This document shows, in pieces, positions 11,446-55,902 of a stretch of DNA of 64,000 nt. Below the pieces are notes generated by a model. The model was given only the letters and a program-made list of their open reading frames with translations. It ran no database searches and had not been told where the DNA came from. Position numbers and translations under genes: made by a program. Position 1 is the first letter of the stretch; each line of letters starts with the position of its first letter. Source of the stretch: Chloroflexota bacterium (lineage in GTDB: Bacteria > Chloroflexota > UBA11872); contig JAPOXD010000021.1 in assembly GCA_026707285.1 (NCBI GenBank), forward strand, positions 2,559 through 66,558. The letters are read 5' to 3'.

Positions 11446-11451
11446 GTGGCT

Positions 11452-26618: not shown

Positions 26619-28154
26619 TCACCAGGGGTTGGTGGCGTCCATCTCCCACTTGACGAGGTTCGTGACCCGGACGGGCCGATCCTCGGTGAAGAGCTTGAAT
26701 TGCTTGCTGTCGTCCCTGGTTGGGTAGACCCGCTGGACGATGCAGATCCGCGAATTGACGAACATCTCGATGACGGAGCGGTCGACGAACAGGTCGATGT
26801 CGAGTCGGCCGCCGCCCTCCAGGGTGAAGGGCACGACTTGCCGGCGGACGCCCCTGGAGTACCGCCCGGCGTCATAGCCGTAGGTCAAGCCCTGGTCTTC
26901 GCTGGCCCGCTCGAAGTCGACCACGAACTGCTGCCGCTCGGCGTCGTAGGTCACCACCGTTTCCTCCCGGCCTCCAGGCGAGCACAGCACCTTGAGCCCG
27001 AACCGAGCGGCGTCGTTGGCCTCGATGGTCAGCTCGATCTCCATACAGTCCGACGCGAAGCCCTGGACCGTCCGTTCCTCGCCCTCAGACAGGGTGACGT
27101 CGACATGCCGCCGCTCGTCGCAGCGCAAGGCGCGAAGCTCGGTGACCGGATCGATGCGGAGGCTGTTGTCGGCCGCAGGCGTGAAATGCCAGGGCAGGGT
27201 CATGACGCCGGCCCACCCATGTTTCTCCCATTGGTGCTCCCGCGCGTCCCTGATCCAGCCCCAGAAAATCCTCCGGCCCCGGTCGTCCACCAGCGTCTCG
27301 GGTCCGGCGACCAGGCTGCCCAGATGGCTCAGTTGCCCGTGGATCTCGGGGATGAACTGCTCGTGCGCGTAGCGCCCGATGTAGTACTGGGCCTTGTTGT
27401 AGGGCCAGTGGGTATGCATCAGCAGCATGTGCTTGTCGCCGAACGGAAAGAAGTTGGAGCAGGCGCAGTCCTCGACTTCCGCCGTCCACCGTCGATCGGA
27501 CTTGTAGAAGGGACCGACGTACTCCCACTGCTTGAGGTCCTTGGACTTGAAGAGGCTTGTTGAGTCTCCCTCGTAGCCGGGGCGGTGGTTCTTGTTTCCG
27601 ACGAGGGCGAAGTAGAAATCGCCCTCTTTCCAGCCGCTGGGATCGAAGATCACGCACTCCGCGAATTTGCTGGAGGACTTGGGCGGTGCGCCCTCCCGGG
27701 GCGGGTCCAGGGGTATGACGGGGTTCTCGGCCAGTGGGACCCAGTGATCCAAGTTGTCGTCGTGGCACTGGTAGATGCAGATGCCCCGCGTGGGCATGTT
27801 GGTGATGATGGCGGGCGGGTCCGTGCCCTCCATCACATCGCCGCTGTTGAAGTAGTCGCCCTTGGCGCCCGCCAGGGGCTCACGCAGCGAGGCTTTGTGG
27901 AAGCGCCAGTGGAGCAGGTCTCGGCTGCTGATGTGCTGCCAGCTCGAGAAGTAGATCTGGCCCGGCCCATTGGCGATCTTCTGCAGGTAGCCGAGGTGAT
28001 ATCGGCCCTTCCAGTAGATGGCGCCGTTGATGTCGTTCCAGCGGCCTTCCGGCGGGACGAAGTGGTACCTGGGCCGGAATTTGTCCGCGACCAGCTTCTC
28101 CCGCAGCTCGTAGGACTCCATCAGGTAGTCGTCGAAGTCGCTCATCAGGTACAC
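26619..28154 (-). CDS. glycoside hydrolase family 32-like (beta-fructofuranosidase/levanase-type five-bladed propeller plus beta-sandwich)
   Basis: N-terminal YHFVPPEGRWNDINGAIYWKGRYHLGYL resembles the GH32 YHF.P..WMNDPNG catalytic block; WIRDARE ~ RDP region; no signal peptide. Confidence 0.6.
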   Translation of the reverse strand: MYLMSDFDDYLMESYELREKLVADKFRPRYHFVPPEGRWNDINGAIYWKGRYHLGYLQKIANGPGQIYFSSWQHISSRDLLHWRFHKASLREPLAGAKGDYFNSGDVMEGTDPPAIITNMPTRGICIYQCHDDNLDHWVPLAENPVIPLDPPREGAPPKSSSKFAECVIFDPSGWKEGDFYFALVGNKNHRPGYEGDSTSLFKSKDLKQWEYVGPFYKSDRRWTAEVEDCACSNFFPFGDKHMLLMHTHWPYNKAQYYIGRYAHEQFIPEIHGQLSHLGSLVAGPETLVDDRGRRIFWGWIRDAREHQWEKHGWAGVMTLPWHFTPAADNSLRIDPVTELRALRCDERRHVDVTLSEGEERTVQGFASDCMEIELTIEANDAARFGLKVLCSPGGREETVVTYDAERQQFVVDFERASEDQGLTYGYDAGRYSRGVRRQVVPFTLEGGGRLDIDLFVDRSVIEMFVNSRICIVQRVYPTRDDSKQFKLFTEDRPVRVTNLVKWEMDATNPW

Positions 28155-29221: not shown

Positions 29222-31369
29222 ATGGCTGACGAGATCGCCCGGCGGCTGGCCCGCACATTGAAGTCGTGGGCGCCCGCCGGCCTGGCGGGGGTCTTGTCCG
29301 GACTGCTGGCCGTGGGCGTGAGCGAGCTCTACGCCGGGATTTTCGGTGGTCTGCCATCGCTGCTCGTCTCCATCAGCGGCCGGATCGTCGACCTGAGTCC
29401 GCGGGCCATGGAAGAGTTCGCGATCAGCGTGTTCGGCACCAGCGACAAGCTGGCGCTCGTCATCTTCCTCGTGGTGCTCACCGCAATCTTCAGCGCCACG
29501 CTCGGCGTCGTGGCCCTGCGGTCTCGACCGGTGGCGGTGGCGGGCTTTGTGGCGTTCGGAGTCCTGGCAGGTCTGGCAAACGCCTTCGACGCCCAGTCAA
29601 CACCGGCCCATACCGCGGCGGCGGCGGCGATTTCGGTGGGGCTGCCGGTGGCGGCGCTCTTGTGGCTCATCCGCCTAATCCGGGAGCCCACGACGGCCAC
29701 GGTAGCGATGTCGGCGAGCCGGATGCGGCGACAGCGACGGCTCTTTCTTGGTACGGCCACGGTGGTTGCAGCGGCCTCGGTCGCGACCGGCATCGTTGGG
29801 CGCAATCTGATCGAGCGCGCCAAGGTCGTCGTGGCCAAGCGCGAGGATGTGGTGCTGCCGCCGGTGAGCGACCGCGCGGCGGTGACGCTGCCGGGGCCGG
29901 CGCCGACGATCACCGTCGCGGAGGCGCTCGCGCCCACGCCAACCCCCGAGCCCACGCCCACCCCCGCACCCGAGCCGACATCGACTCCTACACCCGAGCC
30001 GACACCCACTCCGACGCGGGAGCCCACGCCCACTCCAACGCCCGAACCCACCCCAACCGCCACGCCCGAGCCCACCTCGACGCCCACGCCGACGCCAACC
30101 CCCGAACCGACGCCGACGCCCACACCCGAGCCCACGCCAACTCCTACGCCCGAGCCCACGCCCGCAACCGTGGCCCGCGCGGAGCAGGCAGCCGCGTCGC
30201 AGGCAACCCCGACGCCCACACCCGAGCCGACACCCACTCCGACACCGGAGCCCACGGCCACGCCGACTCCAGAGCCAACGCCAACGCCTACGCCGGAGCC
30301 GACTCCCACCCCCACGCCGGAGCCCACGCCGGAGCCCACGCCCACGCCCACGCCCGAGCCAACCCCGACTCCCACGCCGGAGCCAACCCCGACTCCCACG
30401 CCGGAGCCGACGCCCACACCTACGCCGCCCCCCACGCCCGCGCCAGTTCAGCCGCTGACAACGACGACGGTTCCCGTGGACGGGATGACGCCGCTGGTCA
30501 CGCCGAACAACGACTTCTACCGGATTGACACCGCGTTCTCGATTCCACGCGTCGACGTCAACACCTGGCGGCTCAGCATTGGGGGCCTGGTCGAGCGTCC
30601 GTACAGCATTTCCTTCGACGAGTTGCTAGGGCTCTCGACGTTCGAGGAGTTCATCACGCTGTGCTGCGTCTCCAACCAGGTGGGCGGAAACCTGATCGGC
30701 AATGCCAAGTGGCAGGGCGTGCCGATTTGGCACCTGATCAACCACGCCGGGGTGAAGCCGGAAGCCACCCAGATCGTCGGACGGTCGGTTGACGGCTTCA
30801 CGGTCGGATTTCCGCGCGACGTGGCATTCGATGGACGTCCGGCGCTGGTGGCCGTGGGAATGAATGGCGAAGCGCTGCCGTTCAAGCATGGCTTTCCGGC
30901 GCGTCTCATCGTGTCGGGCCTCTACGGCTACGTCTCGGCCACGAAATGGCTGCAGGAGATCGAGCTCACCACCTGGGAAGGGTTCGACGGCTACTGGATC
31001 CCGCGAGGCTGGTCCAAGCGCGGTCCCGTCAAGCTGCAATCCCGGATCGACGTTCCCAGGCGCTCAGCGACGATAAGCCCCGGCCGGCAACCCATCGCCG
31101 GTGTGGCGTGGGCGCAGAACCGCGGCATCAGCAAGGTGGAGGTGCAGATTGACGGCGGCGACTGGAACGAAGCCAGGCTCGCCCTGCCGATCAGCAAGCA
31201 CACCTGGGTGCAGTGGGTGCACGAGTGGGACGCCACCCCCGGCTCGCACGTTGTCCGGGTGCGCGCCACCGAGGCCAACGGCGAAGTGCAACCCGAGGCT
31301 CCGAGGCCGCCGGCGCCGAACGGCGCCGAGGGCTGGCATCAAATCAGGTTCAACGTCTCCGACTCATAG
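29222..31369 (+). CDS. membrane-anchored molybdopterin-dependent oxidoreductase, sulfite oxidase / MsrP(YedY) family, with long Pro-Thr-Glu linker
   Basis: N-terminal ~5 TM helices; (PTPEPT)n linker; C-terminal Oxidored_molyb pattern ..[14 protein letters not shown]...SFDEL......E...TL.CVSN.VGG...GNA.W.GV......L..AG.... plus Mo-co dimerisation-like tail. Confidence 0.7.
29930..30450 (+). repeat. coding tandem repeat (18-24 nt units encoding PTPEPT / TPTPEPT), low-complexity linker
   Basis: ~25 iterations of cccacgcccgagcccacgcccact-like units; purely Pro/Thr/Glu/Ala translation. Confidence 0.8.
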
Positions 31370-31449: not shown

Positions 31450-33048
31450 CTACGACGGGCCAGGCTGGTCGGCAGACTCCATCCGATAGCTGACGAGCAT
31501 CTCGACACTGGCGAGCGCCAGTTGGCAATCGACCATGGGGTTGCGCCCGATCAACTTCACGCGCAGCCGGTTCCAGCCCTGTCGCGCAAGGGGCGGGGAC
31601 ACGTCGAAGTCGAGCCAGGTGTCGTTGTAGAGCTGGCGCGCGCGGGCCTGGGACGTGTCGAGGCTGTGGCCGTTGAGGTCGAATTGAAGCTCGTCGGGCG
31701 CCGTGAGCTGCTCGATGAGCAGGCGCAAGGTGACCGACTCGAGCGCCCCGTCCTTCGCGGCTGCGTCGAGATCGTCCGCGACGTCGACCGAAACCTCCAC
31801 CTCGTCTCCGGGCTTCTCGAGCGTCGCCGGCAGTGGCCCCTCGCCCCATTCCCGCTGATCCACCAGGTAGTGCTTGTCCTTGCGCGCGATGAGGTCCGGG
31901 TCGGCCATCTCCTTCCAGGGCTGGCGGTCGTAGTCAAGATCGCGGGTGAAGGGGATGAGGTGGTTGTTGAAGAGGTAGATGCCATCGGCGCCGGCCCGCC
32001 AGTGGGCTGCGGCCACGGCTCGGCACATTTCCGTGGAGTAGTAGTTGCGCTCGTTCCACAGCATCGCCGCCGAAAACGATCGGTTCTGGCCGAACAACCC
32101 GAGGTTTTGCGCGATGACCTGCACGCCGGTACCCCGCGCGGCCTCGACATACCCCTCAACGGGAAGCCGGTGCCTGTTGCCCATGGCTTGGCCGACGACG
32201 AGGATATCGAGCAAGCCTTCGGCCAGCCACGCGCGCACGTCGATTCCCGCGGTCATGGCCTGGTCCAGCGAGCCTGGGATCCGGGCGGAGAAATAGACGG
32301 GTCGTCCGACCTGCCGGCGCTTGGCGTCGAGGGCGGCCTTGAGTTCGCGCATCAAATCGGTGAGCAGTACCGCGCCGGCCTGCTCCTCGCCGTCGCGGAA
32401 CAGCCTGGGGTAGCGGCAGAAATCCCAGTCAAGGCCGTCCAGGTCGTAGTTGGCGATGGCCTCCCGGGCCAGGGCCAGCTTGTAGTCCCGCACCTCCGGC
32501 ACGGCGAAGTCGTAGGCCGTCTTGGCCCGCTGTTGAACCCCGGCGTAGGGCCGATCGACCGCGCGCTCGGGAGCATCCTGCCCGAGAAGCCAGTCGGGAT
32601 GGGCGCGTTTCATGGGCGACATCAGCGGATCGTCCAGCCCACCGGGGAGCCTGAGGTCGTGCACGTCGTTGACGCGCATCGAGAGGAACACTTCCAGCCC
32701 GGCTCGGTGACCGTGCTCGATGACGACCGCGGCGGGATCCGCCCCCGCCTCGGTCATTTGCCGGGCGTTCTCGTAGATGCGCCAGTTGGAGGCGGTCGTG
32801 AACGGCGACCCGTCCTGTCCCCAGCGCGGACCCACCGCGGTGTCATGGCTGTAGTGGTCGGACAGGCGATGGGTCGGCGTGCCGAGGTAGGGATCGGTGC
32901 CAAGCTGCCAATAGATGGTGTCGACCTGGGTGCCGCGGAGGGGGTCGATCGCGAGCCGGGCCAGCCCTTCGGCGCCAATCGGCGCCTCCATGGTCGGAGC
33001 GACCAGCGTTCCACCGTCGTTACAAAGGATCAGTCGGTGCGGCTTCAT
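31450..33048 (-). CDS. uncharacterised TIM-barrel glycoside-hydrolase-like protein (distant paralog of 16023 and 17976) with C-terminal beta-rich extension
   Basis: shared blocks DTIYWQLGTDPY (cf. RMYWEAGEGD), EHGHRAGLEVFLSMRVNDVHD (cf. EHCHDAGLEIHASYRVAGF); start at MKPHRLILCNDGG (33048); the ORF upstream to 33678 is probably untranslated. Confidence 0.45.
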   Translation of the reverse strand: MKPHRLILCNDGGTLVAPTMEAPIGAEGLARLAIDPLRGTQVDTIYWQLGTDPYLGTPTHRLSDHYSHDTAVGPRWGQDGSPFTTASNWRIYENARQMTEAGADPAAVVIEHGHRAGLEVFLSMRVNDVHDLRLPGGLDDPLMSPMKRAHPDWLLGQDAPERAVDRPYAGVQQRAKTAYDFAVPEVRDYKLALAREAIANYDLDGLDWDFCRYPRLFRDGEEQAGAVLLTDLMRELKAALDAKRRQVGRPVYFSARIPGSLDQAMTAGIDVRAWLAEGLLDILVVGQAMGNRHRLPVEGYVEAARGTGVQVIAQNLGLFGQNRSFSAAMLWNERNYYSTEMCRAVAAAHWRAGADGIYLFNNHLIPFTRDLDYDRQPWKEMADPDLIARKDKHYLVDQREWGEGPLPATLEKPGDEVEVSVDVADDLDAAAKDGALESVTLRLLIEQLTAPDELQFDLNGHSLDTSQARARQLYNDTWLDFDVSPPLARQGWNRLRVKLIGRNPMVDCQLALASVEMLVSYRMESADQPGPS

Positions 33049-33231: not shown

Positions 33232-33873
33232 ATGAAGTTCGATGTCGTCCAGCACCTCGGTGCGATGGAGCGCTCGGTGTCTTTGCTGGATCGCGATGGA
33301 CTGCCCGCCAGCGCGGTCAGGCTGGCCCGCAGTTACGAGACGACGCTGGAGGACCTGTGGGACGCCACGACGAACGTCGACCGCATTCCGCGTTGGTTCG
33401 CTCCGGTGAGCGGAGAGCTCCGGCTTGGCGGACGCTATCAGGTGGCAGGCAACGCCGGAGGCGAGATCACGGCGTGCGAACGACATTCGCACTACGCGCT
33501 CACGTGGGTGTTTGGCGAGTGGGTGAGCTGGGTGGACGTGCGCGTGGCGGATGAAGGGTCGGGCCGCGCGCGGCTCGCGCTCACGCACACGGCGCATCTG
33601 TCGGAACACTGGGACACTTACGGGCCGGGAGCGGCGGGCGTCGGTTGGGAAATGGGTTTCCTGGGGCTCGCGCTGCATCTCGCGGAGCCCGACTGGCTGA
33701 AGCCCGACGAGATGGAGTTCGCCGCCTCGGCGGATGGCAAGGCGTTCATCGCCGGCAGTAGCGAGGGCTGGCGACGAGCGTCGGTGGCGGCCGGTACGGA
33801 CCCCGAAGCCGCGGCTGCGGCAGCGCGGCAGACGACCGCGTTCTACTCCGGGGAGGAGCCCGAGCCCATGTGA
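33232..33873 (+). CDS. SRPBCC-superfamily protein (AHSA1/START-like)
   Basis: ..SYETTLEDLWDATTNVDRIPRWFAPVSGELRLGGRYQ..GEITACE.HSHYALTW.. pattern of activator-of-Hsp90-ATPase-homolog / polyketide-cyclase-like proteins. Confidence 0.65.
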   Translation: MKFDVVQHLGAMERSVSLLDRDGLPASAVRLARSYETTLEDLWDATTNVDRIPRWFAPVSGELRLGGRYQVAGNAGGEITACERHSHYALTWVFGEWVSWVDVRVADEGSGRARLALTHTAHLSEHWDTYGPGAAGVGWEMGFLGLALHLAEPDWLKPDEMEFAASADGKAFIAGSSEGWRRASVAAGTDPEAAAAAARQTTAFYSGEEPEPM

Positions 33874-33914
33874 GGCCGAGGCCTCCCGACGTTACTTGAG
33901 GCCGGGCCTCTCGC

Positions 33915-34340
33915 TCAGCGCGGCGGACAGGCCGACCACTCGAGAAATGACATCTCTCCTCGCTCCCTCTGCTTGCGCCTCAACTCGGCGATCTCCTCGT
34001 CGGTCAGTCGCTCCTCAGCCGTCGACACCGTCTCTGCGATGAGCTCGAGCTTCAGCTCCCGTTCGGTCAGCCATTCCCAGCGATCGACATTCACCGGGTG
34101 CGGATGCGGGTAAACATCGTCAGGACCGATCTCTTCGGCCACCAGGTAGAGAAACCCCGGCGCCGCTCCGTCATGCCGAATCCGGGCTGTGCTGGACCAT
34201 GAGACGTGTGACGGTTGGTGGGAGAATGCCTTCGCGACATTCTTGTCTTTGGTGATCGAGCTTCCGGTTCTGAGCGTGGTCAGCATTTGATCGGATCCGT
34301 GATACCAGGGGCCACTATAGTCGTATTTGCTATCTATCAT
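33915..34340 (-). CDS. hypothetical protein
   Basis: 141-aa ORF with ATG, followed upstream by an AT-rich divergent promoter region; no family recognised. Confidence 0.35.
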   Translation of the reverse strand: MIDSKYDYSGPWYHGSDQMLTTLRTGSSITKDKNVAKAFSHQPSHVSWSSTARIRHDGAAPGFLYLVAEEIGPDDVYPHPHPVNVDRWEWLTERELKLELIAETVSTAEERLTDEEIAELRRKQRERGEMSFLEWSACPPR

Positions 34341-34550
34341 ATCTTCTAGACCTTATGAACATTTATTCTCTTATATCGGAGTTGTTCGTTGCCAATGAGT
34401 CACGAATCAAGTAGCGCACAATGTTGCGCCTTCCATAATCAATCCATGCGTGTAGTGTTATAAGATACCAGTTGGAGGTTAGGCCAACGAATCTCGATCC
34501 AATTTCAAACCGTGCTAGAGTGCGAGCGGCTCATCGCAGAGTCTTGACAG

Positions 34551-35627
34551 TTGGCGACCCGACGTAGGCGGATCGAGAACGCTCCCTTGCCCTCCCCATT
34601 TCCCGAGGGCTGGTATTTCATCGCCAGCCGGGCGGACCTAGTCAAGTCCAGACTCATCCAGCGGACGTGGATGGGCGAGAACATTGTCGCCTGGTGTGAC
34701 GCCGACGGGCGCGTCTGCGTCGCCGAGGCCTTTTGCCCGCACCTGGGAGCCGACCTGGGGCCCGAAGCCGGAGGCCGGATCTGCGACGGCCGGCTCGTGT
34801 GTCCGTTCCACGGCTATGAGTTCGACGCCGGCGGCCAGTGCGTCGCCACACCCTATGCCGATCCACCCAAGACCGCGAAACTGCGGGTCTTCGAGACGCA
34901 GGAAGTGATCGGCCTGGTCTTCGCCTGGTGGGGGATCGAGGGACGGGCGCCGCAATGGAGTCTGCCGCCGTACCCGCGGGAGGAGCCCGGCTGGACCAAT
35001 TTCAAGATCAGGACCCTGCGCTTCGCCGGCCACCCCCAGGAGACGACGGAGAACTCCGTGGACCTGGGCCACCTGCGGTACGTCCACGGCTATGACAACG
35101 TCGACCGGGTCGAGCGGTTGTCGGTCGACGGGCCCTGTCTGAAGAGCGACTTCGACTTCAAGCGGGTTCGGACGATTGCCAAGGTCGCCAAGCTGACGTT
35201 CGACATCACCGCCAAAACTCGGATCTTCGGGCTGGGGTATTCGTACGTGAAGATTCGCGAGCACTCCATCGGGATGGATTTACGGTTTTGGGTGCTGTCG
35301 ACGCCGGTCGACGGCACGCTGATCGACATGTCGTTGGTCTCGCAGATGCGGGAGATACGCAGACCGAAGCGCCGGATTGCCGGTCTGGGGTTTCTCCCGG
35401 TGAAGCTTCGCGCGCCCCTGATGAACAGATTCATCGCGGCCATGCAAAACCGGGATGTCTTGCAGGACGTGGTCATCTGGGAGCGCAAGCAGCATCGCTC
35501 CCTGCCCCGCCTGTGTCGTTCGGACGGTGAGATCATGCCGTTTCGAACGTACTGTGCGCAGTTCTATTCCGACTCGCCTGAGGTTACGACTTCACTCCCC
35601 AAGCAATCCGGCGAAACCCTACAATGA
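34551..35627 (+). CDS. Rieske [2Fe-2S] non-heme-iron oxygenase, KshA/SdmA/Neverland-like architecture
   Basis: Rieske motif CPHLGADL..(17 aa)..CPFHGYEF; mononuclear iron motif DLGHLRYVHGYD (D-x2-H-x4-H); ~358 aa single-subunit type. Confidence 0.8.
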   Translation: MATRRRRIENAPLPSPFPEGWYFIASRADLVKSRLIQRTWMGENIVAWCDADGRVCVAEAFCPHLGADLGPEAGGRICDGRLVCPFHGYEFDAGGQCVATPYADPPKTAKLRVFETQEVIGLVFAWWGIEGRAPQWSLPPYPREEPGWTNFKIRTLRFAGHPQETTENSVDLGHLRYVHGYDNVDRVERLSVDGPCLKSDFDFKRVRTIAKVAKLTFDITAKTRIFGLGYSYVKIREHSIGMDLRFWVLSTPVDGTLIDMSLVSQMREIRRPKRRIAGLGFLPVKLRAPLMNRFIAAMQNRDVLQDVVIWERKQHRSLPRLCRSDGEIMPFRTYCAQFYSDSPEVTTSLPKQSGETLQ

Positions 35628-35715
35628 CCGGCCAAATTGGCCCTGACTCCCAGGTACCGAATCGGGACGCCATGCGCAACGCTTCCCGAACCAAATCGAG
35701 ATTGAAGGGCAGGCA

Positions 35716-38208
35716 ATGAATCAGGTACTCGGCAAGCTGAGCTCGCTGGTCACGGCCCGCCCGTGGATCACGCTCCTCGTCCTTCTTCTCGTCACCCTCG
35801 CGCTGGGAGCCGGAGCGGTCGTCCGCGCGCCGCCTCCGACGACCGCCGAGACGCTCCCCGACAACAGTCCCATTTCCGACGCGATGGCCGAGATCAATGA
35901 GCTCTTCGGGGACCACGGCGAGATCAGCGCCGTCACCCTCATTTTCCGCGGAGACGCGCTCACGCCCACCGGGCTCGCCCAGATGGATGCACTGATCAAC
36001 GACATCGTCGGCGACGCGGGGGTGCAGGAGCTCCTGGCTCCGACCAATCCGGTCTTTGCGCCGTCGGGGCTGATCAAGTTCGCGCTCCAGACCGACAGCT
36101 TCGATGCGGTGACACAGGCCCAAATCGATGCCGTCCGCGTACTCCCGGAGATTCAACCGGCCCTGGCGGCAATGACCGGCACCGACACCGACGGCACGCG
36201 GGTCGCGATCGGCAGTATCAGCTTGCTCGACACCGGCGACGAGCGCCTGAAGACCGCCGAGCGAACGATCAATGCACTGTCTAAATCTTCTGAGGGTCCG
36301 CTAAGCGCAAGCAGCGTGTCGTTCATCATCCTCGAGGACGAGTACACAGAGGCCACGGAGACGGGAATGGGTCCCCTCATCGGCGTGGCGTTCATTCTGA
36401 TCGCGTTGCTGCTGGTGCTTTTCATGCGCACGGTGTCCGACATGTTGCTGACGCTGGGCGGACTACTCGTGTCGATCATCTGGATCATTGGCGCCGAAGG
36501 CTGGCTCGGTCCGAATGCGCTGGGGCTCATCGGCCCGCCGAACTCGCTGACCACCATGGTGCCGATCATCGTGATCGGCCTCACGGTGGACTACGCCATT
36601 CAGACCATCTCGCACTACCGCGAGCAACGTCTCGAGGGCGGCGAGGTGCGCGAGGCCATTCGCACGGGACTGCGCATTGTGTCCGTCCCGCTGATGCTGG
36701 CGGCCATCACGACGATCGTCGGAATGTTGGCCAGCCTGTTTTCCCCGATCGGTATCGTGCGTGACTTCGGCGTCGTCGCGGGCCTGGGCATCGCGATGAG
36801 CCTGATCGTCATGCTGACGCTTGTCCCGGCCAGCCGGACGATCATGGACCGGCGACGCGAGAAGAAGGGTACGTTGAAGCCGCCGCGTCCAATCGTGCAC
36901 GCCTTGCCGGGCATCGAGCGACTGGCCGGCCTGCTGGGCCGCAGCGTGACCCGCCGGCCGGCGTACTACATCATCGCCGTGGCCGCGGTCACGATCGGGC
37001 TCGGAATCGCGTCAACCGGGCTGAAGTCTGAATTCAACATCCGCGATGTGCTGCCCCGGGGCGGGGCCGTGCTGGCGGATTTGGACACCCTGGAAGCGGC
37101 CATCGGCGGCACGGCCGAGGTGACCAATGTGCTCATCAAGGCCGAGGCCACCGAGACACGCACCCTGCTGAACATGCAGGACCTGACGACCGCCTTCGCG
37201 GACGAGACCCGGCGCCCGCCGGCGGCCGCAGGGCCGATTCAGACCTCGTTTGAATTGCTGCTGCGCGACTGGACGACCGACAGCGGCGTGCCGGGCGACA
37301 AGTACGACCCCGAGATCGCCGCTCTCTTCCAGGAGGCCTCGGCGGGCCTGCAGCTCGATCCTGAGCTGATGCAGGAAATCCTCGACCGGCTCGAGGCCAT
37401 GGACCCGGCCGTTGGTCGCCTGCTGGTCAACGATCCGCAGGGCGTCGACTCCCTGCTGGTTCAATTTCAGAGCTACGGGGGCGACCCCAACCTGACGACG
37501 GCGCTGCAGCAGGACCTCGAGGACCTGTGGGCCGGCGACGACGAGGACATCACCGCAACATCGGAAAGCATCATCTCGATCACAGTCACGGACTCGATTA
37601 CCGAGCGACAAACCGAGGCGATCGCCACGACGGTCGCGGCGGCCCTCACGGTGCTGGCCGTCTTCTTCTACTTGACGGTGCGGCAGCCGGCGCTGGCGGT
37701 TGTCGCCGTCGGGCCCATCGTGCTCGTGCTGATCTGTGTGCTGGGCACGATGGCGCTGCTGGGAATCCCCTACTCGCTCATCACGTCGATCATCACCGCG
37801 CTATCGATCGGAATCGGCGTGGACTACACCATTCACGTGATCCACCGCTATCGGGAGGAATTCGCGCGTCTGCGCAACCCGGAGGAAGCGGCGGTGCGCA
37901 CGCTGGCGACCACGGGATCGGCGCTGCTGGGATCGGCGATGACCACGGCGCTCGGCCTGGGCGTCCTGGCGGCTTCGCCGCTCCTTGCTTCCCAGCAGTT
38001 CGGTATCACCGCGGCGATCACGATCGCCTACTCGCTCATCGTCAGCATCGTGCTGGTGCCGCCGGCCATGACGGTGTGGGGCGCCTATCAAAACATGCGG
38101 CTGCGCTCGATGGTCGAGCGCGAGTGGGCCGACCTGGACGTGGCTATCGAAGAGGTGTATCGGCGCCACGAGGACGACGAACAGGCTTCGCCGACGACAG
38201 ATTCATGA
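35716..38208 (+). CDS. MMPL/RND-superfamily lipid transporter (HpnN/BstA-like architecture)
   Basis: two blocks of ~6 TM helices each followed by large periplasmic loops; 830 aa; MMPL-type conserved membrane blocks. Confidence 0.8.
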   Translation: MNQVLGKLSSLVTARPWITLLVLLLVTLALGAGAVVRAPPPTTAETLPDNSPISDAMAEINELFGDHGEISAVTLIFRGDALTPTGLAQMDALINDIVGDAGVQELLAPTNPVFAPSGLIKFALQTDSFDAVTQAQIDAVRVLPEIQPALAAMTGTDTDGTRVAIGSISLLDTGDERLKTAERTINALSKSSEGPLSASSVSFIILEDEYTEATETGMGPLIGVAFILIALLLVLFMRTVSDMLLTLGGLLVSIIWIIGAEGWLGPNALGLIGPPNSLTTMVPIIVIGLTVDYAIQTISHYREQRLEGGEVREAIRTGLRIVSVPLMLAAITTIVGMLASLFSPIGIVRDFGVVAGLGIAMSLIVMLTLVPASRTIMDRRREKKGTLKPPRPIVHALPGIERLAGLLGRSVTRRPAYYIIAVAAVTIGLGIASTGLKSEFNIRDVLPRGGAVLADLDTLEAAIGGTAEVTNVLIKAEATETRTLLNMQDLTTAFADETRRPPAAAGPIQTSFELLLRDWTTDSGVPGDKYDPEIAALFQEASAGLQLDPELMQEILDRLEAMDPAVGRLLVNDPQGVDSLLVQFQSYGGDPNLTTALQQDLEDLWAGDDEDITATSESIISITVTDSITERQTEAIATTVAAALTVLAVFFYLTVRQPALAVVAVGPIVLVLICVLGTMALLGIPYSLITSIITALSIGIGVDYTIHVIHRYREEFARLRNPEEAAVRTLATTGSALLGSAMTTALGLGVLAASPLLASQQFGITAAITIAYSLIVSIVLVPPAMTVWGAYQNMRLRSMVEREWADLDVAIEEVYRRHEDDEQASPTTDS

Positions 38209-38226
38209 CAGGCCGGGCGCGCTCGC

Positions 38227-39327
38227 GTGTCCCCAGTCGCCGAGCCGCTGCTTGAACCAGGCGTGCAACTCCCGCTAGCCAAGGAGCTTGGACAGCTCCG
38301 CGACCTCTCCAGGGGGCTGAAAGGCGCGTACCGCGGGGGAGACGCCAACCGTCGGGTGCGGCACTTCAGCGGATGGCTGCGCCGAGCAACGGCGGATGAC
38401 GACGGCGCGAGCGGCTACGACCACGCCAAAACCGTGAAGGAGTACTACGACCTCTGCGGCGAGTTCATGGTGTTCGGCTGGGGCGAATCGCTCCACTTCG
38501 CGCCGCTGGCGCCTCACGAAAGCCTGCAGGACTCCAAGACCAGGCATCAGCGGTTGATGATCGCCAAGCTGGAGCTGCGCGAGGGCATGACGGTGATCGA
38601 CGTGGGCTGCGGCATCGGCGGCCCGCTGCGTCGGGTCATCCGCGAGGCCGGCGTGAGCGTCCTCGGGGTCAACAGCAACGAGATCCAGTTGGAGAAGGCC
38701 AAGTCGCTCGACGCCGACGCGGGGCTCGACCACATGGCCGACTACCTCGCGTGCAGCTTCATGGACATGGAGGCGATCGCGGACGACACGTTCGACCGGG
38801 GCTACGCCATTGAGTCGACGTGCCACGCCCCGGACAAGGCCGGCGCGTTCGCCGAAATTTGCCGCGTGCTAAAGCCCGGCGCGCTCTTCTGGGGACAGGA
38901 AATGTGCCTGACGGACGCGTTCGATCCTTACGACAAGCGACACCGGCACATCGAACAGGAGCTGAAGTACTCCATCGCGCTCAAGGACATCGCGACGATG
39001 GGCCAGGTCAACCGCGACCTCGAATCGGCGGGATTTCAGGTCATCGAGGGCCGGGATTTGGCGGTCGCGGGGAACGGTCCGACCACTCCGTGGTACCAGC
39101 CCATGGTGAATCGGCGCCAAACGCTCGGCAACGCCCTGCACCGGACGCCCATCGGCCGCAAGGCGTTCATGGGGGCGTCGAGGCTGGTCGAGGCGGTGGG
39201 AGTCTTTCCGAAGGGCGCCACCGACGTCGTCGCCCTGATGCATCGCACCGCCAACGCCTATGTCGCCGGCGGCAGGGCCGGGATTTTCACGCCGCTGTAC
39301 TGTTTTCTGGCGCGCAAACCCGGGTAG
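38227..39327 (+). CDS. sterol C-24 methyltransferase (ERG6/SMT family) homolog
   Basis: YYDLCGEFMVFGWGESLHFAP (cf. ERG6 YYNLVTDFYEYGWGSSFHF), SAM motif VIDVGCGIGGP, AIESTCHAPDKAGAFAEICRVLKPGALF (cf. [28 protein letters not shown]), C-terminal IFTPLYCFLARKPG (cf. LFTPMMLFVARKPE); GTG start. Confidence 0.8.
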   Translation: MSPVAEPLLEPGVQLPLAKELGQLRDLSRGLKGAYRGGDANRRVRHFSGWLRRATADDDGASGYDHAKTVKEYYDLCGEFMVFGWGESLHFAPLAPHESLQDSKTRHQRLMIAKLELREGMTVIDVGCGIGGPLRRVIREAGVSVLGVNSNEIQLEKAKSLDADAGLDHMADYLACSFMDMEAIADDTFDRGYAIESTCHAPDKAGAFAEICRVLKPGALFWGQEMCLTDAFDPYDKRHRHIEQELKYSIALKDIATMGQVNRDLESAGFQVIEGRDLAVAGNGPTTPWYQPMVNRRQTLGNALHRTPIGRKAFMGASRLVEAVGVFPKGATDVVALMHRTANAYVAGGRAGIFTPLYCFLARKPG

Positions 39328-39360
39328 GCTCGCCGCGTCACTCGGGCGAGGCTCGGCGCC

Positions 39361-41385
39361 TTAAGCGGTCAGTTCGCGTCGCTGCTTGGCAATGCGGAAC
39401 TTCAGCTTCTTGCTCGGTTTGCTCGACGGCAGCGGGCTAAACCCGAGCTCGAAGTTCGGCGGCGACACCTCGATATCGAAGTGGCGCGCGATCATCAGCA
39501 CGTTGGCCGCCAGTTGCAGTTCCACCCACCCCGTCCCGAGGCACCGGTGCGTGCCCAGCCCATACGGGGCGTAACCAGGACCGCGATGCTCATTGCGCGG
39601 CGGCTGGTAGCGGTCGATGTCAAATTTGAAGGGTTCGGGAAACACGCTTTCCGTGTAGTGCGTGGCCGTCTGGGCAATGTGAAGCCGGGACCCGACGGGC
39701 AGCTCGTAGCCTTCGACCACGCACGAATTCATCACGTTCCGAATGGACATCGGGACGATCGGGTAGACCCGCAGGCACTCCATGAGAAAGCGATGGGTGA
39801 CGTCGATCTCTCGTGGCCTGAATGCCTCTCCACTTGGGTCGCCGTTGGCGAACAACGCATCGGCTTCGTCGCGGATCTTCGCGTAGATCTCCGGCTTCGA
39901 CGCCATGGCATACAACACGAAGCTGAACATGTCGCCAAGGTAGACGCTCGCGATCAGCGCGGCTGACAGCGCGAAGGGCAGATTCGACTCCGGGACGAAC
40001 TGCGGATCGGTCGCGTGCAGGCCGAGAAGGTCGTCCGCAAGATCGCGCGGACATCCAGCCCGCTGCGCGGGCGTGTGGCCAATCCGCACCCGGTTCAGCA
40101 GTGTGTCCAAAGACCTCATCCGGCGTTTCATGCCTGGGGTCCGCAGCATGAACTTGGGCAGCACCTTTGCGACGTGAACGCTGAGCGCCCGTTCCTTGAA
40201 CCGCGCCAAATCCGCAAAGACATCCTGGGAATCAACGCTGATAAGGAGCGGCGAAAGCTGCGCGTTGATCATTCGCCGGCACATCTCCGTTGCCTGGTAA
40301 GTTTCCCCAACCTCCCAGTCCGCCATATAGCCCCGTGCATGCCGGTACACCTGGTCTAGCTGTCCCGCGAGCCTGCCGCGGGAATACCCCGGGCCCAACG
40401 ACTTGCGAAGCCGAAAGTGATCGGCGCCATCCAGGGACGGCAATACGCCCGAGGCGCCATAGACCTTCTCGAAGTCCGCAAAATAGTCCCTCGTCCGCAG
40501 GTACCTGCGCCCGCTCCGATGGACCCAGCGGTTCACCTCGAGGCCGCCAACGAAGATCATTGGTTCCACAAGAGGCGGACGGATCATGAACACCGGCCCG
40601 TACTCTTCGGTGAGCTGCGCGAATAGGGCGGGAAAGTTCCCGTTGCGAACGTGCCGATTCAGCAGCAGCCGCCACAGCGGGACGGTCGGAATCTTCTTGG
40701 ACAGGGCGGAATGCTGGAGCAGCGGTGCGGCAAGGCTCTGTGACACGGCATCGGCGATCGACCGGCCGATCAAGTCCATATTGCAGATGAAGTGAATGCG
40801 CTCCTCATCCTGTTCTTCAAGCTGGAAGATGAAGCGAAACACATCACAGGTATTGACCAGGCAGATGATGATCACGTCTCGCGGATCGGGAATTTCGTTG
40901 TTGAAGATCGCCTTGCCGATGCGGGTCTTCACAAACTGCGCCGCGGATCGCTCTGGGGAGCTTTCGAACATATCCCCCTGCCGCGCGGCCCGGGCAAGCG
41001 TCCAGAACCCGCCCTCGTGATGATCCAGAATCCCCATGTCAACCAAGCGATCCAGCGTGAGATCGATGATCGATTCGGCGCGGGGCGCCAGCCGTTCGAT
41101 CCAATACTGGGCGTTATGCCGGCCCGGCTCGCTCGCAATCTCCTCGAGGATGGGGTCCAGCGTCGGGTCGCCCGTTTCCGCCGCATCGACGAGAAACAGC
41201 GACTCGATATCCGTGTCGATGCGCGACATGAGCGAGAGCTCGGCGAGCGCCGCGCCGACGACGGCGCAGTTCAGACGCCATCCTGGAACCTGGTGAAAGT
41301 AGCCGCTCTCCTCATTGAGGAGCATCAGGAGAAGCTCTTCGGAAAGGCTTAACTGACGGGTCGACGTACTGTCTGCGACGGCCAT
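39361..41385 (-). CDS. fusion protein: N-terminal GOLPH3/GPP34-family domain plus C-terminal cytochrome P450
   Basis: N-terminus LSLSEELLLMLLNEESGYF...GAALAELSLMSRID matches the GPP34 signature; C-terminus carries EXXR and the heme-thiolate loop FDIDRYQPP...YAPYGLGTHRCLGTGWV; ATG at 41385 with aagga RBS, although the ORF opens with TTG at 41451. Confidence 0.7.
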   Translation of the reverse strand: MAVADSTSTRQLSLSEELLLMLLNEESGYFHQVPGWRLNCAVVGAALAELSLMSRIDTDIESLFLVDAAETGDPTLDPILEEIASEPGRHNAQYWIERLAPRAESIIDLTLDRLVDMGILDHHEGGFWTLARAARQGDMFESSPERSAAQFVKTRIGKAIFNNEIPDPRDVIIICLVNTCDVFRFIFQLEEQDEERIHFICNMDLIGRSIADAVSQSLAAPLLQHSALSKKIPTVPLWRLLLNRHVRNGNFPALFAQLTEEYGPVFMIRPPLVEPMIFVGGLEVNRWVHRSGRRYLRTRDYFADFEKVYGASGVLPSLDGADHFRLRKSLGPGYSRGRLAGQLDQVYRHARGYMADWEVGETYQATEMCRRMINAQLSPLLISVDSQDVFADLARFKERALSVHVAKVLPKFMLRTPGMKRRMRSLDTLLNRVRIGHTPAQRAGCPRDLADDLLGLHATDPQFVPESNLPFALSAALIASVYLGDMFSFVLYAMASKPEIYAKIRDEADALFANGDPSGEAFRPREIDVTHRFLMECLRVYPIVPMSIRNVMNSCVVEGYELPVGSRLHIAQTATHYTESVFPEPFKFDIDRYQPPRNEHRGPGYAPYGLGTHRCLGTGWVELQLAANVLMIARHFDIEVSPPNFELGFSPLPSSKPSKKLKFRIAKQRRELTA

Positions 41386-41593
41386 CCGACTTAGTCCTTG
41401 TGCTTGCCCTAAGCTCGCAAGGGCCTGTCGTCCCTGTATCGCATTATACAACCGCGACTGCCCAGCGGCAACGAGATATCAAAAGACGAATCAACGATAA
41501 AGCAGGATTAGTATTTCGACATATCTTCGGGAGTCACTTCAACAAAACTCATACACTCAAGCGACTCATATTCAGTCGACCGACGTTCGAGTA

Positions 41594-42961
41594 TTAGCCT
41601 TTTGCCTTCTTGAACCGCCAACCGTGCATGATGCTGCCGTAATGGTTGAATGACCGCCTTGCCCTGGCGTCGTCAAATGGATAGACGGCCCCGATCTGCG
41701 TTGCCGCGGCGAGACCACTCACAAAGCAAGTTTCCTGACTATTGACCAGCGTGTGCGCGCCGCAGTGCCACGTCCGCCTTCTGCCCTGAATGAACTGGAA
41801 GAGGTTCACAAGCCAGGCCACGTGGCGCACGTCGTGCACGATGTGTTGGAACCACCATCTTCCAACGATCTTTTGACCATCGATCTCGCTGATTGGATTG
41901 TAGGTAACCAGACACGGTTTGTCTGACCGATTGGCCCATGGTTGCTGGTTGTGCATGATGTACGTAATTTCATAGTTGTCGGGTCGCGCGCCATACTGCT
42001 CAATATGGTTGCTCCGCGTCTCCAGCGGTTTCACGGCGTTGTCCGGAAGCACTGAAGAATCCGAATGAATCACCGTGTGATTGTGGAGCTCGCTCTCATA
42101 TCGAATCGAAGACAGGATATAGCGCTCGAGCAGCGTGGGTTTATCGAGAATCATCAAGGTCTGGTTCGCATTGCACGCGAATACCACCTCGTCGAACGCC
42201 TCCGTCACGCCGCCTTCGTCCTCAACGACGACGCCCGAGGACTGCCGGTACACCTTTCTGACCGGACGGTTGAGGTAGAGCTTGTCTCGAAAACCCGCTG
42301 ACAAGTTCTCGTAGATGCGGCGCGTCCCCTGGTCCCATGTCTGCATTGGGGTGGCGGTTTCGATATCGAAGAAGTCGAGGTACCTCGCGAAGAGCGCGGC
42401 GGGCATGTCGAACACGTTGGTCGCCATCAGGAAATTGACGAACATGGGCTTGAGAATTTTGTACCGAAAGTCGCCGGAGAATCCCCCCAGATTCAGCACC
42501 GTGCCCATGCTGATGTAGTTGAACGGGTTGAGCGCGTTGAGCAACTTCGACTGGGTACGGCTCAGCCAGCCAATCCAGTGCAGGCGTCGCAAGAGGCGCT
42601 GGAACTTTGCGATCTCGACGTGCAGCTGGTCTCTGATCTCGGAGTCAAAGTCGTGGGCGTAGATTTGGCCGCGGTACTTCACGCTGTAGCTGAACCTGGT
42701 ATCGACCAAGTCGATGCCGAACTGCTTCATCAGCAGGACGATGTGGTCGTACACCGACGGAATGCAGGCGGTTACGGAAATGTCGAACGGAATCGAGCTG
42801 CCGTCATCCTGCGGCATATCGGCGGTGATCGCGTTTCCGCCGATCCGGTCCCGCGCTTCGAACAGACGGAAATCGAAGCGGTCCGGGTGGTGATGCAGGC
42901 CCCATGCGGCAGCTAGCCCTGAGATCCCTCCGCCGATGATGGCTATCCGCCGCAGCGTCAT
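41594..42961 (-). CDS. FAD/NAD(P)-binding amine-oxidase-like oxidoreductase (COG2907 type, usually partnered with cyclopropane-fatty-acyl/SMT-type methyltransferases)
   Basis: Rossmann IAIIGGGISGLAAAW..FEARDRIGGN; ..IPFDISVTACIPSVYDHIVLLMKQFGIDLVDTRFSYSV.. block characteristic of COG2907 proteins; noticeably lower GC than flanks. Confidence 0.65.
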   Translation of the reverse strand: MTLRRIAIIGGGISGLAAAWGLHHHPDRFDFRLFEARDRIGGNAITADMPQDDGSSIPFDISVTACIPSVYDHIVLLMKQFGIDLVDTRFSYSVKYRGQIYAHDFDSEIRDQLHVEIAKFQRLLRRLHWIGWLSRTQSKLLNALNPFNYISMGTVLNLGGFSGDFRYKILKPMFVNFLMATNVFDMPAALFARYLDFFDIETATPMQTWDQGTRRIYENLSAGFRDKLYLNRPVRKVYRQSSGVVVEDEGGVTEAFDEVVFACNANQTLMILDKPTLLERYILSSIRYESELHNHTVIHSDSSVLPDNAVKPLETRSNHIEQYGARPDNYEITYIMHNQQPWANRSDKPCLVTYNPISEIDGQKIVGRWWFQHIVHDVRHVAWLVNLFQFIQGRRRTWHCGAHTLVNSQETCFVSGLAAATQIGAVYPFDDARARRSFNHYGSIMHGWRFKKAKG

Positions 42962-44536: not shown

Positions 44537-44613
44537 TGGCACGCCCGGAGGGATTCGAACCCCCGACCCCTGGTTCCGAAGACCAGTGCTCTAATCCGCT
44601 GAGCTACGGGCGC
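44537..44613 (-). tRNA. tRNA-Arg (anticodon UCG)
   Basis: reverse complement GCGCCCGTAGCTCAGCGGATTAGAGCACTGGTCTTCGGAACCAGGGGTCGGGGGTTCGAATCCCTCCGGGCGTGCCA; cloverleaf, CCA encoded. Confidence 0.85.
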
Positions 44614-55826: not shown

Positions 55827-55902
55827 GGGCCGATAGCTCAGTCGGAAGAGCGCCGCACTCGCATTGCGGAGGTCGTGGGTTCGAGTCCCATTCGGTCCAC
55901 CA
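55827..55902 (+). tRNA. tRNA-Ala (anticodon CGC)
   Basis: GGGCCGATAGCTCAGTCGGAAGAGCGCCGCACTCGCATTGCGGAGGTCGTGGGTTCGAGTCCCATTCGGTCCACCA; G3:U70 identity pair; CCA encoded. Confidence 0.85.

Follow-up and report, generated by a model that had tools for sequence, protein, structure and literature searches.

The current study describes a five-gene locus on contig JAPOXD010000021.1 of a Chloroflexota bacterium of the UBA11872 lineage (assembly GCA_026707285.1), which was analyzed as a stretch of 64,000 nucleotides, hereafter referred to as the window. Based upon the open reading frame (ORF) listing and the translations, five intact ORFs span positions 34551–42961 and are arranged as two convergent units. 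The forward unit encodes a KshA-type single-component Rieske non-heme-iron oxygenase (34551–35627, 358 amino acids, TTG start), an MMPL/HAE3-type resistance-nodulation-division (RND) membrane transporter (35716–38208, 830 amino acids), and a divergent member of the sterol methyltransferase (SMT) family of S-adenosylmethionine (SAM)-dependent enzymes (38227–39327, 366 amino acids, GTG start). The reverse unit encodes a flavin adenine dinucleotide (FAD) oxidoreductase of the amine-oxidase fold (41594–42961, 455 amino acids) followed by a fusion of a GPP34 domain to a cytochrome P450, or “GPP34_L” (39361–41385, 674 amino acids from its ATG). An earlier reading of the same DNA from its sequence alone (the sequence-only reading) had already placed five genes here, and the families it assigned, including the amine-oxidase-like FAD enzyme, are confirmed by Pfam. 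It had also proposed that the genes tailor and transport a sterol or triterpenoid made elsewhere or obtained from a host. The core of that proposal holds and is strengthened by the gene context in relatives, while several of its specifics fail. In our view, the locus is best explained as the form taken, in the single-membrane Chloroflexota, by a module whose carriers known to date are nearly all sponge symbionts. That this module tailors and transports a lipid or isoprenoid of some kind seems quite probable, and that it specifically tailors sterol-type molecules and exports them is a reading toward which we lean with modest confidence.

The methyltransferase has the domain order of the SMT family, with a class I methyltransferase domain (Methyltransf_11, 54.3 bits) preceding a Sterol_MT_C domain (57.6 bits against a cut-off of 21.7, covering model positions 5–65 of 66), and its C-terminal end reads GIFTPLYCFLARKPG. 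For residue numbering, yeast ERG6 served as the ruler, its sequence having been verified at 31 positions numbered in Brown & Welander 2025; the window protein is 32% identical to it. The same study lists 25 residues conserved across all functional SMTs (ERG6 numbering), of which the window SMT retains 22 and differs at T78G, F89L, and L341M. Retained features include H90, E195, G217, W286, the SAM motif DVGCGIGGP, and the C-terminal FTP…ARKP that the sequence-only reading had recognized. The sterol-binding regions are changed to a greater extent, with Y81M, E82V, and Y83F in Region I and G218A, T219L, and Y223Q in Region IV, as well as an isoleucine at position 249 (D249I relative to ERG6). 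The docking model of Brown & Welander 2025 places positions 81 and 249 next to the sterol side chain. These changes are not peculiarities of a single protein. After a search of 1.84 billion cluster representatives, a neighbor-joining tree placed the window SMT within the SMT family in a compact and separate clade, approximately 40% identical to the canonical SMTs. Y81M, E82V, F89L, G218A, T219L, Y223Q, and 249I are fixed in this clade (L89 is present in 69 of 73 family sequences) and position 78 is mostly S or G, whereas canonical SMTs nearly always carry T78, Y81, E82, F89, and Y223. The clade motifs FMVxGWGESLHF, YAIESTCHAP, and KPGALFWGQEM also recur in two of the non-Chloroflexota loci described below, one from Nitrospira (L169) and the other designated L171.

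F89 and T78 are found in every SMT that acts upon desmosterol or 24-methylenecholesterol (Brown & Welander 2025), and consequently no member of the divergent clade is among the active enzymes. A comparison of the readable contig names of the tested SMTs with the 80 listed of 87 metagenome loci of the clade revealed no overlap; the SMTs of Nitrospira and Chromatiales derived from metagenome-assembled genomes (MAGs) lay outside this comparison. As all reported functional SMTs carry F89 and T78, the C-24 specificity predicted for the window SMT by the sequence-only reading appears doubtful, even though the family assignment itself was correct. The same reading regarded sterol side-chain methylation in bacteria as rare, a view superseded in 2023, when bacterial SMTs were demonstrated, some of them from sponge symbionts and producing 24-isopropyl sterols (Brown et al. 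2023, PMC10070321).

The P450 gene encodes more than was initially recognized. A p450 domain (PF00067, 105.2 bits) is indeed present, but the sequence-only reading missed the GPP34 domain at the N-terminus of the same protein (PF05719, 105.7 bits against a cut-off of 29.1, residues 36–237); it also missed the connection to sponge symbionts, which together with this domain tells the most about the locus. Although the ORF extends upstream to a TTG at 41451, translation probably begins at the ATG at 41385, as the public gene call and the N-termini of homologs agree upon this start. The gene is preceded by an AT-rich intergenic region (41386–41593, GC 0.48), and a promoter scan reported a putative sigma-70-like site at 41471–41443 on the minus strand, which is only a lead, as the scan yielded two sites in total versus 1.6 expected by chance. 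Homologs of approximately 675 amino acids with the same two domains were found in more than 2000 clusters at 70–91% identity, and their records include the names Nitrospira, Rhodospirillaceae, and Dehalococcoidia. One Dehalococcoidia locus (L028) carries two adjacent copies (11091–13118 and 13909–16026). The best match of the P450 domain in the Protein Data Bank is CYP51 of Methylococcus capsulatus (E 2e-20, 76 bits, whole domain), followed by 7tef, deposited as CYP51B1 (E 9e-19). The heme cysteine motif GLGTHRCLG and the ExxR motif are both present. However, the AGxHTS-type I-helix of the CYP51 signature is not. In its place is SVYLGDxFSF (SVYLGDMFS in the window, residues ~470–495), which has a five-residue deletion relative to CYP51 and lacks the usual threonine, an anomaly common to 55 members of the GPP34-P450 family. 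An AlphaFold2 model built from a 40-sequence alignment was too poor to be used (mean pLDDT 59, pTM 0.54).

The GPP34 domain can be aligned with human GOLPH3. Eukaryotic GOLPH3 binds phosphatidylinositol 4-phosphate (PI4P), in the human protein through a pocket that we take to consist of W81, R90, R171, and R174. When 20 members of the GPP34-P450 family were aligned with GOLPH3 (3kn1 and 9qpq), these positions corresponded to V, V/I, E, and I, with low confidence in the C-terminal part of the alignment, and the PI4P pocket residues were thus not recovered. Hydropathy analysis detected neither a signal peptide nor an N-terminal transmembrane segment in the fusion protein. GPP34_L proteins have been reported as exclusive to sponge symbionts, in which they occur across 16 phyla and are expressed in Aplysina aerophoba (Microbiome 2025, PMC11706023). 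They were proposed as PI4P-binding, phagocytosis-evasion factors, and rare GPP34-Rieske fusions were noted as well (PMC11706023). The same article makes no mention of methyltransferase, MMPL, lipid, or sterol.

The Rieske protein combines a Rieske [2Fe-2S] domain (60.2 bits) with a KshA_C domain (83.2 bits) bearing iron ligands. Its [2Fe-2S] cluster motif CPHLG…CPFHG, the iron motif DLGHLRYVH (HxxxxH), and the Asp of QDV all align to KshA, the best solved relative (4qdc, E 7e-26, mostly the N-terminal half). The TTG start at 34551 is required, as the KshA alignment begins at residue 6. The transporter matches Pfam MMPL (163.6 bits), Sterol-sensing (51.7 bits), and Patched (45.4 bits), and its hydropathy profile comprises approximately 11 transmembrane-like segments in two bundles with two large external loops. 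Its scores against the curated equivalog models are 221 versus a cut-off of 351.9 bits for HAE3 (TIGR00921), 114 versus 751.85 for HpnN (TIGR03480), 25.5 versus 1400 for BstA (NF045600), and 42.6 versus 1400 for MmpL3. We therefore rejected the orthology to HpnN or BstA, whose architecture had previously been attributed to it, and judging from these profiles it is best described as a generic HAE3/MMPL RND protein. The FAD enzyme matches Amino_oxidase (65.8 bits) and NAD_binding_8 (46 bits). Among solved structures it is nearest to LkcE (E 2e-31 over the full length) and then to the “putative aminooxidase” 2b9w (E 1.7e-12), which we take to be the fatty-acid double-bond isomerase of Propionibacterium acnes. 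A second amine-oxidase gene in the window (59859–61232) was considered as its paralog and rejected, as the two share only 22% identity.

One of the key features of this locus is the recurrence of its gene content. A scan of GTDB species genomes returned at least 599 stretches matching the clade patterns, and synteny was counted in the best 80 loci after clustering the ORFs located within 10 kb of the SMT gene. Among these 80 GTDB species loci, the MMPL transporter lies beside the SMT in 57 (and a variant MMPL in a further five), the GPP34-P450 in 57, the KshA-type Rieske oxygenase in 51, and the FAD enzyme in 38, with a variable gene order. This recurrent synteny excludes a chance grouping. 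The association also extends to more distant lineages: among sponge-metagenome loci no shorter than 9 kb, the GPP34-P450 was present in 24 of 43 and the Rieske oxygenase in 17 of 43. The linkage between SMT and GPP34-P450 seems to be undescribed in the literature that we searched, and a full-text search for GPP34 together with sponge and sterol returned nothing relevant. What is new here is the composition of the module and the link of GPP34-P450 to the divergent SMT clade; the existence of sterol gene clusters in sponge symbionts was already known.

Genes for sterol metabolism repeatedly border the module in relatives. Reductases of the ERG4/ERG24 family adjoin it in 7 of the 80 loci, and their best solved match is the delta14-sterol reductase 4quv (E 2.5e-33). 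In a UBA11872-like clade these occur as tandem pairs of approximately 70% mutual identity a few genes downstream of the module (L009 at 17535–19938, L013, L014, and L025), while single copies are found in L019 and in Dadabacteria (L048, L058). Canonical SMT genes adjoin the module in L015 (17274–18302), L017 (14453–15526), L023 (14438–15454), and L037 (8804–9910), and are found also in L169 (12872–13951) and L172 (7768–8793 and 12593–13702). These adjoining copies have T78 and mostly Y81, E82, F89, and Y223, and all carry G249 except the L169 copy, which has D249; G249 is reported to be necessary for side-chain propylation. Evidently, divergent and canonical SMTs can occur side by side. Other neighbors include an LppX/LprAFG lipoprotein (12 loci), an MFS transporter (19 loci), and, in Dadabacteria, a 3-beta-HSD-like NAD-binding protein. 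A search of the window itself found no ERG4/ERG24, canonical SMT, LppX, or MFS gene and no 3-beta-HSD-like NAD-binding neighbor. In the UBA11872 clade, the neighboring genes for a glyoxalase, amidohydrolases, PPK2, a rhodanese, and a 2-hydroxyacid dehydrogenase were judged to be unrelated to the module.

The linkage was also evident in the reverse direction, when four loci (L169–L172) in non-Chloroflexota genomes were anchored upon the GPP34-P450. A Rieske gene was adjacent in all four, SMT genes and an RND pump were each found in three, and the FAD enzyme in two. In the sponge symbiont Nitrospira sp. SB0662_bin_26 (L169), the locus contains the GPP34-P450, a divergent SMT, a Rieske oxygenase, an outer-membrane protein, a canonical SMT, a 1156-amino-acid fusion of squalene epoxidase and oxidosqualene cyclase (SE-OSC, 13995–17465), and a P450. 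The other three loci reside on chromosome-sized contigs of 4.9–6.6 Mb and encode a membrane-fusion protein and an AcrB-type RND pump directly upstream of the GPP34-P450. All three include a Rieske gene, and two of them include SMT genes and a FAD enzyme, the latter located next to the GPP34-P450 in L171 and L172. An OEP gene is present in L170 and L172 and an LptD gene in the L171 locus. Thus, the MMPL transporter of the Chloroflexota loci is exchanged for an AcrB-type pump in loci that carry outer-membrane genes. This swap speaks for the transporter being part of the module and points to export, as do the LppX/LprAFG lipoprotein genes of 12 loci. Two further large contigs (2258192 and 763155 nt, their records paired by equal length) carry both an SE-OSC fusion and a GPP34-P450; these are probably of the Nitrospira type, their SE-OSC proteins being 88% identical to the Nitrospira query. 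Among the best 120 SE-OSC homologs listed, no contig was shared with the listed Chloroflexota module contigs. The SE-OSC fusion is itself conserved as strikingly as the module, with homologs at 72–91% identity that include records named Nitrospira, Acidimicrobiia, and Rhodospirillales.

Carriers of the module belong to several phyla and, as far as observed, are almost all sponge symbionts. At least 589 of the matching GTDB stretches encode a relative of the divergent SMT. The best 80 matches are mostly from MAGs of Dehalococcoidia and other Chloroflexota, with others among the 80, at 70–77% identity, deriving from records labeled Dadabacteria, Alphaproteobacteria, Acidimicrobiales, Candidatus Poriferisocius, and Thermodesulfobacteriota. 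Judging from their names, the MAG series RHO, COS, APA, and SB06xx presumably stem from published work on sponges. Table S1 of Kelly et al. 2022 (PMC9531527) lists the jk18x and p16x bins as MAGs from Ircinia, and MPND bin90 is from A. aerophoba. Among 241 million JGI/GenBank metagenome records, only 87 confirmed matches to the clade were found, and at least 62 of the 80 listed originate from A. aerophoba (MKWU, JGIcombinedJ30088, Ga0209021), Petrosia ficiformis (LXNJ), or Sarcotragus foetidus (LXNI). The bacterium harboring the window is a sponge symbiont.

The module has also spread horizontally through hundreds of sponge symbionts belonging to several phyla. Across records labeled as different phyla, the SMT is 70–77% and the GPP34-P450 70–75% identical, and the GC content of the SMT gene remains at 0.57–0.66 throughout genomic backgrounds ranging from 0.49 to 0.70. 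It is this cross-phylum identity and steady SMT composition, rather than the local dip in GC, which argues for horizontal spread. The sequence-only reading had seen signs of horizontal acquisition in the lower GC, an AT-rich left border, and a tRNA-Arg fragment at the right border. The dip is genuine but modest, as GC per kb is 0.56–0.66 within the cluster versus ~0.68 in the flanks and per-gene values are 0.57–0.66 versus 0.67–0.72. The third-position GC of the Rieske, MMPL, and SMT genes (0.83–0.87) equals that of the flanks and is lower only in the GPP34-P450 and FAD enzyme genes (0.77–0.78), while the intergenic stretches 34341–34550 and 41386–41593 account for part of the dip. With three of the genes being no different from the flanks at third positions, base composition alone is weak evidence for a recent transfer. 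The supposed boundary was mistaken, as the tRNA-Arg(TCG) gene, 77 nt in length (44537–44613, minus strand), is complete and located 1.6 kb past the cluster, with a YegS/DAGK lipid-kinase gene in between. No shared word of at least 11 nt was found between this tRNA and the left border of the cluster, no integrase was present in the gene tables of the window and the inspected contig flanks, and the closest relatives (L005–L008) share the flanks of the window. For these reasons, a tRNA-linked genomic island was rejected.

To the left of the module, the 210-nt AT-rich region at 34341–34550 (GC 0.44) separates the Rieske gene from a divergently transcribed gene on the minus strand (33915–34340, GC 0.59). 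The region presumably contains the promoter of the Rieske-MMPL-SMT operon, although the promoter scan gave no promoter-like match within it. The divergent gene encodes a 141-amino-acid protein with no Pfam or NCBIfam match and, among the 80 GTDB loci, is kept only in the five closest relatives (L001, L005–L008), making its membership in the module doubtful. Slightly farther to the left is an AHSA1/SRPBCC-superfamily gene (33232–33873, 30 bits), which is kept a few genes left of the module in nine Chloroflexota loci. SRPBCC-superfamily proteins often bind hydrophobic ligands, and this one may be an accessory of the module.

Based upon these features, a working model of the module can be proposed. 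A sterol with an unsaturated side chain would be supplied by the bacterium's own cyclase pathway, where one is present, or by the sponge or neighboring symbionts, an outside source being more likely in the lineage of the window. The divergent SMT would then move a methyl group from SAM onto the side-chain olefin, with the altered pocket residues 81, 89, 223, and 249 presumably imposing a substrate or regiochemistry unlike that of the tested C-24 SMTs. The FAD enzyme could reduce, isomerize, or desaturate the resulting double bond, and oxygen addition or carbon removal might fall to the two oxygenases, the KshA-type Rieske protein and the CYP51-like P450. In such a scheme, the GPP34 domain would anchor the P450 at the membrane instead of binding PI4P, and the RND transporter would extract the product from the cytoplasmic membrane and deliver it to the sponge matrix or the cell surface. 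The case for sterols as opposed to other lipids is strengthened by the ERG4/ERG24 reductases, canonical SMTs, and SE-OSC fusion adjoining the module in relatives as well as by CYP51 being the best match of the P450.

Several observations weigh against this model, beginning with the source of the sterol. Apart from a single gap of 24 bp, the window agrees with a metagenome contig of 114 kb in ENA (ERZ27276916, k141_28310), and the gene tables of the window and of ~1.3 kb to its left and ~1.2 kb to its right contain no squalene synthase, epoxidase, or cyclase; the absence of an oxidosqualene cyclase from the window had been correctly noted before. What these tables do contain is glycoside hydrolases, BNR proteins, toxin-antitoxin pairs, and cell-wall genes. 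The relatives L005–L008 include the MAGs RHO3_bin_74, jk18xAbins.3, and jk18x1bzbins.9. Two jk18x MAGs are described as Chloroflexota_B of class UBA11872 from Ircinia felix, ~3 Mb in size with 67–68% GC (Kelly et al. 2022, PMC9531527). In the same study, four related UBA11872 MAGs are scored as “CSG present: No”, i.e. without the ERG24-CYP51-LSS cluster, and three of these four carry the module (L007, L008, and L014). From this published scoring and the lack of a cyclase in the 64-kb window and ~2.5 kb beyond it, the sterol probably comes from outside the cell in this lineage. Other difficulties concern the enzymes themselves. The divergent clade lacks F89 and mostly lacks T78, such that any tested member was inactive on desmosterol and 24-methylenecholesterol, and its substrate may not be a sterol. 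The missing I-helix threonine raises the possibility that the P450 may not be an ordinary oxygen-activating hydroxylase. The Rieske protein, which the sequence-only reading had described as KshA/SdmA-type, is closest to KshA but is not an SdmA, scoring 37.5 bits against the SdmA equivalog (NF052579, cut-off 600); the Dadabacteria homolog fares likewise, and the 3-beta-HSD-like neighbor in Dadabacteria scores 42 bits against the SdmB cut-off of 600. An SdmA/SdmB C-4 demethylase identity for the Rieske protein and the NAD-binding neighbor was accordingly rejected on these curated cut-offs. Neither a KshB-type reductase nor SdmB was found near the Rieske gene of the window, and the cluster encodes no ferredoxin or reductase with which the Rieske protein or the P450 could partner. 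Finally, the transporter falls far short of the hopanoid and sterol transporter models (HpnN and BstA), and the SMT stands alone in ~18 of the 80 loci.

Some of these points would be accommodated by what we consider the main rival explanation, namely that the module acts upon a non-sterol lipid or terpenoid and that its SMT-like enzyme has been co-opted from sterols to another substrate. Candidates would include a sponge terpenoid, an unsaturated fatty acyl chain, and acyclic or partly cyclized isoprenoids such as squalene, and a precedent exists in the SMT-like triterpene methyltransferases of Botryococcus. The residues contacting the sterol side chain are all replaced and fixed within the clade (Y81M, F89L, Y223Q, 249I), and none of the SMTs with demonstrated activity on sterols can belong to this clade. 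Both the lack of a cyclase in the window and the scoring of related MAGs without the ERG24-CYP51-LSS cluster also count in favor of this rival. The second-best solved relative of the FAD enzyme, 2b9w, is presumably a fatty-acid isomerase, and lipid methyltransferases are commonly paired with FAD oxidoreductases. Nevertheless, Sterol_MT_C and 22 of the 25 functional-SMT residues, H90 and E195 among them, have been kept, what adjoins the module in relatives is specifically sterol-related (ERG4/ERG24, canonical SMTs, and the SE-OSC fusion), and the solved structures nearest to the P450 and the Rieske protein are those of CYP51 and KshA. We view a non-sterol substrate as unlikely.

It is less probable still that the module serves the uptake of host sterols for degradation or detoxification, with the MMPL protein importing the sterol and the KshA-like oxygenase and P450 opening or oxidizing the steroid. 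KshA is the nearest solved relative of the Rieske protein, the symbionts inhabit sterol-rich sponge tissue, and the related UBA11872 MAGs are scored as having no cyclase cluster, all of which would suit a consumer of sterols. A SAM methyltransferase, on the other hand, builds rather than degrades, and the loci inspected contain no KstD, Hsa, Fad, or Mce4-type steroid catabolic genes. In addition, the transporter of L170–L172 is an AcrAB-type efflux pump, accompanied by an OEP gene in L170 and L172, and such pumps export, while the Nitrospira module adjoins genes of sterol biosynthesis. A further idea is that the GPP34-P450 acts as a secreted effector of eukaryotic type, which would bind PI4P of the host and prevent phagosomes from maturing, with unrelated genes for neighbors. 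It draws upon the exclusivity of the fusion to sponge symbionts of 16 phyla, its expression in A. aerophoba, and the established PI4P binding of eukaryotic GOLPH3, but it seems highly improbable given the replacement of the presumed PI4P residues by V, V/I, E, and I (in an alignment of low confidence in its C-terminal part), the absence of a signal peptide or N-terminal membrane segment, the tight cross-phylum linkage to SMT, Rieske, FAD-enzyme, and RND pump genes, and the silence of the proposing article on methyltransferases, MMPL, lipids, and sterols. Due to this gene content and these residue data, both the catabolic and the effector explanations fit less well than does tailoring and export.

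Should the module indeed tailor and export sterols, a more specific role is conceivable for the divergent clade, although we regard it as a long shot: it might be the missing alkylase for unusual sterol side chains, acting after a canonical C-24 SMT, with its product exported to the host. The alkylation in question could be, for example, C-26 methylation, as in aplysterol- or 26-methylstigmastane-type chains, or the formation of cyclopropyl sponge sterols. This idea stems from four observations: 1) the enzymes for C-26 methylation are still undiscovered (PMC10070321), 2) the side-chain contact residues of the clade are all changed, 3) a canonical SMT with G249 is often adjacent, and 4) the clade is abundant in metagenomes of A. 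aerophoba, whose main sterol is 26-methylated. It is countered by the presence of the module in symbionts of many other sponges, which are not known to contain such sterols.

The significance of the module lies in the meeting of two lines of research, one concerned with bacterial SMTs and sterane biomarkers and the other with the GPP34-P450 of sponge symbionts. The former bears upon the use of 24-isopropylcholestane and 26-methylstigmastane as the oldest animal biomarkers. In most of the genomes inspected, the SMT and GPP34-P450 are physically linked and accompanied by the Rieske oxygenase, FAD enzyme, and RND transporter. If this linkage is functional, the GPP34-P450 should be studied as an enzyme of membrane lipids, the SMT clade with its remodeled pocket would become a defined candidate for sponge-type sterol alkylations, and exported sterols modified by bacteria would be a candidate currency or recognition signal between the sponge and its symbionts. 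If the side-chain alkylase idea proved true, part of the “demosponge” sterane signal would be bacterial and the GPP34-P450 would be a sterol enzyme.

Outside of the module, the window contains several features of separate interest. Positions 1–33000 form a dense carbohydrate-degradation neighborhood with three BNR_2 (sialidase-like) genes (314–1540, 5120–6418, and 8703–10004) and two more just upstream on the contig, some of these being paralogs of 78–86% identity, together with genes for GH42 (6440–8542), GH116 (11452–14010), GH32 (26619–28145), and three GHL10 proteins (16029–17795, 17976–19775, and 31450–32991). A toxin-antitoxin locus at ~19980–21025 encodes a HigB-like toxin and its HTH_3 partner with a PhdYeFM antitoxin gene adjacent, and a PhdYeFM/PIN pair is found near the right end of the window (62184–62860). 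The 24-bp gap relative to the ENA contig falls within a molybdopterin-oxidoreductase gene (29222–31369), which encodes 715 amino acids in the window and 707 in the record; the region is skewed at 30–31 kb (GC skew -0.18, AT skew +0.21). Two tRNA-Ala(CGC) genes (55827–55902 and 57906–57981), located 2 kb apart and identical at 74 of 76 positions within otherwise unrelated sequence, lie at the start of a low-GC stretch (~56000–60000, 0.55–0.58). Between them are genes for a 223-amino-acid protein without a family and a Peptidase_M78 (ImmA/IrrE-like) protein, and this region could be the remnant of a tRNA-integrated element.

When compared to characterized systems, each component of the module combines familiar and distinct qualities. 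The window SMT shares its fold and domains (Methyltransf_11 and Sterol_MT_C) with yeast ERG6 and the tested bacterial C-24 SMTs, yet it falls within its own clade with fixed pocket replacements. The Rieske protein has in common with KshA the Rieske and KshA_C domains as well as the cluster and iron ligands, whereas relative to SdmA it scores far below the model cut-off and has no SdmB nearby. Pairs of a lipid methyltransferase and a FAD oxidoreductase are exemplified by BfaB/BfaA, for 10-methyl fatty acids, and UfaM/UfaD, for furan fatty acids, in which the SAM methyltransferase attacks an olefin and an amine-oxidase-fold FAD enzyme reduces or desaturates the product. As far as these general descriptions go, the module is similar in encoding a SAM methyltransferase and a FAD enzyme together, but its methyltransferase belongs to the SMT family rather than the CFA-synthase family and its FAD enzyme is nearest to LkcE. 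The transporter resembles BstA (sterols, Methylococcus; PMC10942540), HpnN (hopanoids), and MmpL3 (mycolates) in its RND/MMPL topology and sterol-sensing-type transmembrane bundles, and its gene similarly adjoins lipid-modifying genes, with LppX/LprAFG-type lipoproteins in 12 related loci. Unlike those transporters, it scores below all of the cut-offs, and no BstB or BstC partners were seen. The GPP34-P450 has the two-domain architecture and ~675-amino-acid length of the published GPP34_L proteins (PMC11706023); here, however, it is a fixed member of a putative lipid-tailoring module and does not conserve the PI4P residues.

The closest parallels are the bacterial sterol clusters already described, such as those of Brown et al. 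2023 (PMC10070321) and the ERG24-CYP51-LSS clusters of Ircinia symbiont MAGs, in which SMT1/ERG6 annotations are also enriched (Kelly et al. 2022, PMC9531527). Like the module, these clusters are found in sponge symbionts, include SMT-family genes, have been transferred between phyla, and act upon sterols, as the module presumably does. In Nitrospira sp. SB0662_bin_26, the module even sits directly beside such a cluster. However, the published clusters encode de novo pathways, comprised of the oxidosqualene cyclase, CYP51/ERG11, ERG24, sdmA, and sdmB, none of which are encoded in the window. The module instead consists of a divergent SMT, a GPP34-P450, a Rieske oxygenase distinct from SdmA, a FAD oxidoreductase, and an RND transporter.

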